A DNA stretch of 64,000 nucleotides from Escherichia phage vB_ECOLIGBLB0003, in sequence record PV654517. The stretch is one strand, 5' to 3'. The position numbers and the translations under genes are program-made. The notes beneath the pieces were generated by a model. That model searched no databases, was not told the origin of the DNA, and saw only the letters and a program-made list of their open reading frames with translations. Position 1 is the first letter of the stretch. Each line of letters opens with the position of its first letter. This document shows positions 2,550-2,602 of this stretch, piece by piece.

Positions 2550-2602
2550 CCTTATGTTATGTCAGTAAGACTACTGTAACACAACATAAGGAACTTGTAA
2601 AC
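2550..2602 (-). promoter_or_regulatory. structured leader element: 13-bp stem that pairs the Shine-Dalgarno, next to a GTTTAC -35-like hexamer
   Basis: Arms 2550-2562 and 2579-2591 are complementary (one G.U on the RNA); inner CAGTA/TACTG pair in the loop; GTAAAC on + strand at 2597-2602; nearly identical copy at 17676-17728. Confidence 0.5.

Follow-up and report, generated by a model that had tools for sequence, protein, structure and literature searches.

How does an early gene of a T4-like phage stay silent when it lies on the same strand directly behind a gene whose product is made later in infection? The question arises at two near-identical elements on the minus strand of Escherichia phage vB_ECOLIGBLB0003 (sequence record PV654517), of which we analysed a stretch of 64,000 nucleotides (nt), called the window hereafter. 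Element 1 (approximately 2539-2602) occupies the entire 60-nt spacer between alt (4659..2602) and an open reading frame (ORF) of 96 amino acids (aa) that is the homologue of T4 alt.-3, and element 2 (approximately 17665-17728) occupies the entire 61-nt spacer between rnlA (gene 63) and alc. The answer that we favour, with a probability of roughly 0.6, is that in both places the gene's own early promoter licenses its translation while read-through RNA from upstream is masked by a hairpin, in what would be a temporal mirror image of the arrangement found at the T4 genes e, soc, 49 and I-TevI. The parts of the two elements, and the genes that they precede, are these:

2596..2602, minus strand: -35 region GTTTACA of element 1; its G is the final base of the alt stop codon TAG (2602-2604), and it fits the T4 early consensus TTTACW-N17-TAYWAT (PMC4122927)
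2579..2594, minus strand: 5' arm of element 1, which is the -35/-10 spacer, with the anti-Shine-Dalgarno sequence UUCCUU (from the fold and pair counts)
2573..2578, minus strand: -10 hexamer TACAGT of element 1, preceded by TGn, in the hairpin loop
2566, minus strand: predicted transcription start of element 1, an A, the 7th nt past the -10 (placed by standard sigma-70 geometry)
2547..2562, minus strand: 3' arm of element 1, containing the Shine-Dalgarno (SD) sequence AAGGA (2549-2553) (from the fold)
2251..2541, minus strand: alt.-3 homologue, 96 aa, phrog_1739, downstream of element 1
17722..17728, minus strand: -35 region GTTTACA of element 2, starting 4 nt past the rnlA stop codon (promoter scan, TTTACA-17-TACAGT with TG)
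17705..17722, minus strand: 5' arm of element 2, AAGUCC, a bulged C and UCAUGUUGUGU, which is promoter spacer and anti-SD sequence (from the fold)
17699..17704, minus strand: -10 hexamer TACAGT of element 2 in the loop; predicted start at 17692
17672..17688, minus strand: 3' arm of element 2, containing the SD sequence GAGGA (17675-17679) (from the fold)
17164..17670, minus strand: alc, inhibitor of host transcription, downstream of element 2

The promoter scan found in both copies a complete T4-type early sigma-70 promoter pattern, GTTTACA-N17-TACAGT with the spacer ending in TGT. T4 itself has TATAGT as the -10 at both sites, and in other Tequatroviruses it is a perfect TATAAT; across 16 distinct variants from the genus the hexamer varies at two weakly constrained positions only, with -12, -11 and -7 invariant, which is the pattern expected of a working -10. 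One GenBank record annotates a T4 early promoter together with a rho-independent terminator on element 1, and the late-promoter sequence TATAAATA is present in neither element. The order of the parts is the same in the two copies: the -35 stands directly 5' of the stem, whose 5' arm is formed by the spacer; the loop holds the -10 and the predicted +1, and the 3' arm holds the SD sequence. Relative to the predicted +1 (2566 and 17692), the 5' arm in its entirety is at -29 to -14. With its predicted start in the loop, the transcript of the promoter itself would lack the 5' arm and could not form the hairpin, whereas a transcript initiated upstream must form it. In full-text searches of the literature we found no mapping of an alc promoter or start site and no paper on a hairpin at alc or alt.-3, an earlier mention being possible since older T4 sources were not covered.

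As minus-strand RNA, element 1 folds at -26.9 kcal/mol (z = -6.3) with 16 base pairs (bp), and element 2 at -23.6 kcal/mol (z = -4.1) with 17 bp and one bulged C; both have A/U-rich stems and 16-nt loops. A preliminary description of this DNA, made from the letters alone, had reported the two segments 15 kilobases (kb) apart as nearly identical and had called for their folding. Their coordinates and sequences were verified, 59 of 64 aligned positions being identical (~92%), and a 39-nt degenerate pattern with up to 3 mismatches matched only these two sites in the 64 kb and nothing in 100 shuffles. The stem was said to have 13 bp and is in fact longer, as given above. The single difference named in the stem, T-A in one copy and C-G in the other, compensated on both arms, is real, but further differences exist (the copies differ at alignment columns 11, 15/50 and 40 and in the 3' flank). 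The SD sequences were found in the 3' arms where they had been placed, AAGGA at alt.-3 and GAGGA at alc. An inner pair CAGTA/TACTG described for each loop has 5 bp in the alt.-3 copy only; the alc copy has 4 bp of it, and in relatives with TATAAT as their -10 the pairing is interrupted, so we rejected this helix as a conserved feature. Among Rfam families, only sub-threshold matches to generic miRNA-like hairpins were obtained (at most 24 bits, against thresholds of at least 60 bits). At alc there are two adjacent ATG codons (17670 and 17667), of which the second, annotated in T4, is 7 nt from GAGGA and the first only 4 nt.

We then asked how strongly the fold would close the initiation regions, taking as opening energy the free energy of keeping positions -14 to +4 around the start codon unpaired. 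For alc it is 18.6 kcal/mol in the read-through RNA versus 2.8 kcal/mol in the promoter-initiated RNA, and for alt.-3 17.0 versus 1.8 kcal/mol. The 51 other minus-strand initiation regions of the window have a mean of 5.0 kcal/mol (standard deviation 2.1), and their sole outlier is the start of I-TevI in the td intron, at 14.5 kcal/mol, a value that both alc and alt.-3 exceed. In T4, four genes are documented to combine a masked ribosome-binding site with an internal promoter, and I-TevI is one of them (PMC3014915); the measure thus recovers a known case as its top control, which validates it. The GTTTAC hexamer earlier noticed beside the stem as -35-like is indeed the -35 of a full early promoter (TTTACA-N17-TGn-TACAGT), and the accompanying suggestion that an internal start frees the ribosome-binding site while read-through hides it is borne out by the modelled energies (17-19 versus 2-3 kcal/mol) and by the predicted start in the loop. 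The I-TevI ATG lies at 26270 on the minus strand (context 26200-26380), with a late-promoter-like TAATAAATA directly upstream.

Is this design kept where the sequence is not? The region upstream of alc was compared in 14 lineages whose Alc proteins are 35-60% identical, and 10 of them have the same design built from different sequences. In Gelderlandvirus, Karamvirus, Erwinia COW86c, Klebsiella Roth80, Marfavirus, Dhakavirus (two phages), Roskildevirus and Winklervirus, phages of other genera with Alc 45-60% identical, GTTTACA is followed directly by an anti-SD sequence (UCUCC, UCCUC or CCUC) that pairs with the cognate GGAGA or GAGGA. The remaining stem differs from lineage to lineage, for example UCUCCGUUU/AAACGGAGA, CCUCGUUUGUU/AACAAACGAGG and UCCUCAUUUCGUUGUGG/ACACUAACGAAAUGAGGA. 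Duplexes between spacer and leader have a mean of -14.9 kcal/mol for cognate pairs versus -10.0 +/- 0.8 kcal/mol when the partners are swapped across lineages, and none of 7407 derangements was as low; this test is alignment-free and replaced a cross-genus MAFFT alignment that was out of register for pair counting. A covariance model built from the Tequatrovirus copies only, a search proposed in the preliminary description, recovered the elements of the other genera with E = 5e-6 to 0.015. On these comparisons, the design conserved across genera is the strongest and decisive evidence, ranking above the single compensatory pair.

Within Tequatrovirus the variation is shallow. Each of some 500 genomes has exactly two copies, and over the 16 distinct variants the 13-bp core is paired in 99.5% of cells. 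The sole pair with a double change is C-G in 13 variants, U.G in two and U-A in one, and a second pair toggles between G.U and A-U. Compared with T4, the alt.-3 copy of the window shows C.A to U-A, C-G to U-A by way of the observed U.G, and G.U to A-U, all of which keep or improve pairing; the sense strand folds 4-9 kcal/mol more stably than the antisense strand. The compensatory pair is real and has intermediates, but by itself it is a weak argument.

Published time-resolved T4 data place alc and alt.-3 in the early class for both RNA and protein, in keeping with an early promoter at each; rnlA has early RNA and a late protein, and alt is a late gene. The terminator scan listed none between alt and alt.-3 or between rnlA and alc, and no U-tract is present in either place. 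From the T4 classes and the lack of a terminator it follows that each element sits at a boundary of temporal classes, behind a later-made gene and ahead of a strictly early one on the same strand. The surroundings are as follows:

2602..6756, minus strand: two tandem alt (ADP-ribosyltransferase) genes upstream of element 1
6780..6787, minus strand: late promoter TATAAATA, directly past a terminator hairpin; the first alt gene follows 24 nt downstream
17732..18856, minus strand: rnlA (gene 63, RNA ligase 1 and tail-fibre attachment), upstream of element 2
2225..2246, no strand assigned: bidirectional intrinsic terminator after alt.-3 (terminator scan)

The late promoter ahead of alt is a candidate source of transcripts crossing element 1, the tandem alt genes would supply the late read-through RNA, and the terminator at 2225-2246 is the likely end of the alt/alt.-3 transcripts. 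Upstream of rnlA are the mapped middle promoters PI-TevIII, PnrdB and PnrdA (Hinton, 2010). A candidate middle promoter with a MotA box nearer to rnlA (TGCTTCC-N13-TACTAT, 18880-18915, minus strand) was set aside, as it is absent from the table of mapped middle promoters in Hinton (2010); it overlaps a small hairpin CCACA-TGGAG-TGTGG.

The observed sequence, fold, promoter consensus, energetic contrast and cross-genus conservation with covariation of the arms can be assembled into a mechanism. At the DNA level, each element would act as a T4-type sigma-70 early promoter, with GTTTACA, a 17-nt spacer and TGn-TAYAGT, and at the RNA level the same spacer would be complementary to the 5' leader of the downstream gene and its SD sequence. 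Initiation at the internal promoter would begin in the loop and give a transcript carrying the 3' arm only, with an open ribosome-binding site, such that alc and alt.-3 would be translated from their own-promoter RNA right after infection. Polymerase arriving from upstream, making late alt mRNA at element 1 and rnlA/nrd RNA, by early read-through or from middle promoters, at element 2, would copy both arms; the resulting hairpin of 16-17 bp would bury the SD sequence and leave the downstream early gene untranslated. Translation of alc and alt.-3 would therefore end once their own early promoter is shut off. What we infer in this scheme is the position of the start, the presence and quantity of read-through RNA, and the effect on translation.

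The two elements are not isolated in the window. A scan for GTTTAC[AT]-N16-18-TAnnnT followed by an SD sequence and ATG gave 12 sites, all on the minus strand, and five of them (-35 positions 2601, 17727, 59067, 49277 and 11560) bury the SD sequence in the read-through RNA only, with opening energies of 10-19 kcal/mol there versus 0.3-6 kcal/mol in their own transcripts. Over the 12 promoters, cognate complementarity beat that of swapped pairs (0 of 10860). Others of these promoters have hairpins that cover the -10 or stay within the spacer and do not reach the SD sequence. Besides elements 1 and 2, the masking sites are the following, with the opening energy of the read-through RNA given first:

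59009..59068, minus strand: same design in another sequence; the spacer UCCUCGGUUAGUUAUGG pairs with the SD region of a 166-aa ORF (phrog_1106); 15.1 versus 5.9 kcal/mol
49218..49278, minus strand: same design; the spacer CUGUUCCUCUGUGG pairs with CUACGGAGGAACAG upstream of a 37-aa ORF; 14.1 versus 1.2 kcal/mol; covariance model E = 0.013
11502..11561, minus strand: same design, weaker; the spacer UUCCUUUGUG pairs with the SD region of a 110-aa ORF; 10.1 versus 0.3 kcal/mol; E = 0.019

From these sites and the other genera one may conjecture, at odds somewhat short of even, a general design in T4-like phages in which the information-poor -35/-10 spacer of an early promoter encodes the anti-SD sequence of its own gene, so that only initiation at that promoter would license translation and every read-through from upstream would be silenced, conserved at alc in at least nine enterobacterial T4-like genera and spread to other genes by cassette exchange.

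Several observations count against the proposal that masking of read-through RNA is what these hairpins are for. The leaders are only about 22 nt long, such that a long 3' arm overlaps the SD sequence nearly by geometry. Covariation within the genus is not significant, since its one double change was reached by 97 of 500 shuffles, and across genera the folding energies of sense and antisense strands show no consistent preference for the mRNA strand. Upstream of alc in PEi20 and in the Acinetobacter phages Lazarus and BRC001 the hairpin spans the spacer, the -10 and the start but leaves the SD sequence outside, the alc locus of PhAPEC2 (L042) has a small spacer hairpin only, and VR26 has no promoter upstream of alc. 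Hairpins that miss the SD sequence, in four of the 14 lineages and at several promoters of the window, imply that masking is not their sole role. Finally, a canonical terminator (11590-11611) lies directly upstream of the promoter at 11560, where a mask on read-through would be partly redundant.

One alternative draws on cassettes known from the literature. PeSL (promoter-early stem-loop) cassettes, which join an intergenic A/T-rich region, a sigma-70-like early promoter, a stem-loop, an SD sequence and an ATG, occur at many sites and have been described in the RB49/phi1, PST/T4 and nt-1/KVP40 pairs (Arbiol, 2010, PMC2839356; Comeau, 2014, PMC4122927). The stem-loops of our elements could likewise attenuate or terminate upstream transcription, or protect the 3' ends of alt and rnlA mRNA, and aid the shuffling of cassettes, the overlap with the SD sequence being a by-product of the short leader. 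The definition itself lends weight to this account, as a PeSL stem-loop often lies within the -35/-10 interval or over the -10, and one of them was as effective a terminator as rrnB T1 when tested in a lacZ fusion (PMC2839356). In addition, the WebGeSTer run of the GenBank record calls a rho-independent terminator on element 1, the hairpins of other promoters fall short of the SD sequence, and recombination fits both the alt.-3 copy, which resembles a replaced cassette, and the ndd.1 promoter of a Mosigvirus, which shares with that copy the 3' half only. However, no U-tract follows either stem (the tails are ACACAAAAUG and CUUUAUGAUG), and the terminator scan omits both elements while listing canonical terminators nearby. 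The stems are A/U-rich here and G/C-rich in the RB49 stem-loops, and the stem base coincides exactly with the pairing of SD and anti-SD sequences in 10 lineages. We therefore hold a PeSL role of this kind, in place of masking, to be rather unlikely; transcripts escaping termination would still be masked, and the two roles are compatible.

A second alternative is that the hairpin marks read-through RNA for processing, by RNase III-type cleavage, or couples translation of the downstream gene to that of the upstream one. With 16-17 bp the stem is nearly as long as an RNase III substrate, and the upstream stop codons are just 8-12 nt before the 5' arm; however, the stems of other genera go down to 7-9 bp, too short for RNase III, and judging from the length of the mRNA channel a ribosome halted at the stop codon of alt or rnlA would open no more than the first 1-3 bp, which makes coupling by melting unlikely. 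Taken together, we consider processing or coupling a distinctly improbable account. The least probable, by a little, is a duplicated strong promoter with no role in RNA, be it a protein-binding palindrome in DNA, a cruciform at the -10 or a neutral relic under gene conversion: the presence of exactly two copies in all of the approximately 500 Tequatrovirus genomes and the antisense strand folding about as well as the sense in several genera would suit it, but the arms diverge between genera with pairing kept, which disfavours both a sequence-specific protein site and neutrality, loops of 16-24 nt should on physical grounds disfavour cruciform extrusion, and the G.U/U.G pairs and the U.G intermediate of the Tequatrovirus mRNA strand, along with its 4-9 kcal/mol advantage, speak for RNA.

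Returning to the masking of read-through RNA, we compared it with the systems already known. The hairpins of T4 e, soc, 49 and I-TevI mask the initiation region and have an internal late promoter (Uzan and Miller, 2010; PMC3014915). Like them, the elements would mask the SD sequence and/or AUG in RNA initiated upstream, and the RNA of the internal promoter would be without the 5' arm; unlike them, the internal promoter is of the early sigma-70 class and not a gp55 late promoter, which would make the gene active at once and masked later, and the 5' arm is the -35/-10 spacer itself. The promoter class being early and not late, the elements would work like those four genes but are a variant and not a strict member of the group. 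The comparison with T4 lysozyme regulation made in the preliminary description is in this sense an apt analogy, with the qualification that e, soc, 49 and I-TevI in PMC3014915 use late promoters; alc and alt.-3 are not among the masked cases listed there.

With the PeSLs both elements share a sigma-70-like early promoter, a stem-loop and the SD sequence with ATG within one intergenic motif, and likewise repetition (two near-identical and at least 10 looser copies in the window) and signs of cassette exchange (the alt.-3 copy and JS09 ndd.1); the PST/T4 promoter consensus is TTTACW-N17-TAYWAT (PMC4122927). In the PeSL papers the stem-loop figures as a terminator or attenuator and as a site of recombination; neither translation nor masking of the SD sequence is mentioned in them (PMC2839356, PMC4122927). 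The stem-loops of the PST/T4 PeSLs are described as standing immediately upstream of the promoter, whereas in our elements the ribosome-binding site forms the 3' arm and no U-tract is present. A further resemblance is to the promoter-coupled terminators of bacteria (Fletcher et al., 2026 preprint, 10.64898/2026.08.19.745784), in which one short stretch likewise combines a hairpin of the upstream transcript with a downstream promoter. In those, the -35 comes from the stem, the T-tract serves as spacer with the -10 after it, and the 3' end of the RNA falls about 10 bp before the start (10.64898/2026.08.19.745784), whereas in our elements the stem begins only past the -35, the loop holds the -10, the 3' arm comes after the start and there is no T-tract. 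Finally, the intrinsic terminators of the same phage (e.g., 2225-2246 and 11590-11611) are also stable intergenic hairpins of the early strand, but with G/C-rich stems, 4-nt loops and U-runs, as opposed to A/U-rich stems of 16-17 bp, 16-nt loops and no U-run. The best reading of the sequence is that the two elements would be PeSL-like promoter/stem-loop cassettes within a wider class of hairpin-embedded early promoters. Masking hairpins with late promoters and PeSL cassettes are already known; the early-promoter version, with an anti-SD sequence in the spacer, is in neither PMC3014915 nor the PeSL papers, and an earlier mention is possible.

If masking of read-through RNA is correct, it would explain how early genes such as alc and alt.-3 go untranslated on later read-through RNA from middle and late genes of the same strand, and it would provide a built-in, post-transcriptional shut-off of early protein synthesis at the boundaries of temporal classes. 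According to the review by Hinton (2010), ModA and AsiA do not explain the early shut-off, and unidentified strategies must exist. The stem-loops of PeSLs would also gain a translational role so far undescribed, and phage engineering would have at hand a compact part of 60 nt that couples translation to a single promoter. T4 genetics as it stands permits a direct test of the idea.

Regarding the origin of the alt.-3 element, the alt to alt.-3 junction of Dhakavirus, Mosigvirus, Marfavirus and Karamvirus has an early promoter with a small spacer hairpin only and an opening energy of 3-7 kcal/mol; from these ordinary values it follows that the SD-masking element at alt.-3 is specific to Tequatrovirus. 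It is best read, from the sequences compared, as a copy of an ancestral alc-type cassette. At the ndd.1 promoter of Mosigvirus JS09 (L012, 1483-1543) the stretch reaching from the -10 as far as the ATG hardly differs from the T4 alt.-3 element (TATAGTAGTCCTACTGAAACATGAGGAACACAAAATG), and the spacer is unrelated to it and has a hairpin of its own, CGGUAGGA/UCCUACUG; this promoter looks like a chimeric cassette that arose by recombination close to the -10. Two complete alt paralogues stand in tandem in the window; in T4 there is a single alt, with alt.-1 and alt.-2 as remnants of a second copy, and the sequence immediately upstream of the T4 alt.-3 element is the 3' end of the alt of the window. 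The 601-nt stretch surrounding element 1 is 98-99% identical to T6 and its relatives, and the window belongs to a T6/T4-like Tequatrovirus.

Other early promoters also carry hairpins. At 28327-28371 and 57916-57966 (minus strand; GTTTACA-N17-TACTAT and -TATAAT) the hairpins span the -10 and end before the SD sequence. A small spacer hairpin, CCAC-AAGGA-(N)GTGG, with an SD-like AAGGA in its loop, recurs at several early promoters in several genera: in the window with the -35 at 54258 and 49768, at alt.-3 promoters of other genera (L053-L055) and at PhAPEC2 alc. Its 3' arm may be merely the 'gtgg' of the T4 early promoter consensus.

When IMG/VR and metagenomes were scanned with sequence patterns, 8 and 9 loci were obtained, mostly the same two Tequatrovirus sites along with three unrelated promoter-like matches, which contributed little variation, and protein-anchored scans of viral contigs gave 5-6 loci each. 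Record PQ666542.1 (Shigella phage sb4, L037) was left out, as its alt, DNA ligase, pseT and rnlA are fragmented in a frameshift-ridden assembly. In GenBank MG010123.1 ('Staphylococcus phage SAJK-IND', 32 kb), positions 31817-31881 hold the Tequatrovirus alt.-3 element at 91% identity, and in the annotation of another phage SAJKIND genes are cited as T4-like; mislabelling or contamination of the record is probable. Three metagenome contigs (L026, L029 and L031), with no similarity to the flanks of the T4 elements, match GTTTACA-N17-TAYAGTAGTCTTAC exactly, with an SD sequence and ATG following in L026 and L031, and these are probably genuine promoters whose initial transcribed sequence coincides by chance.

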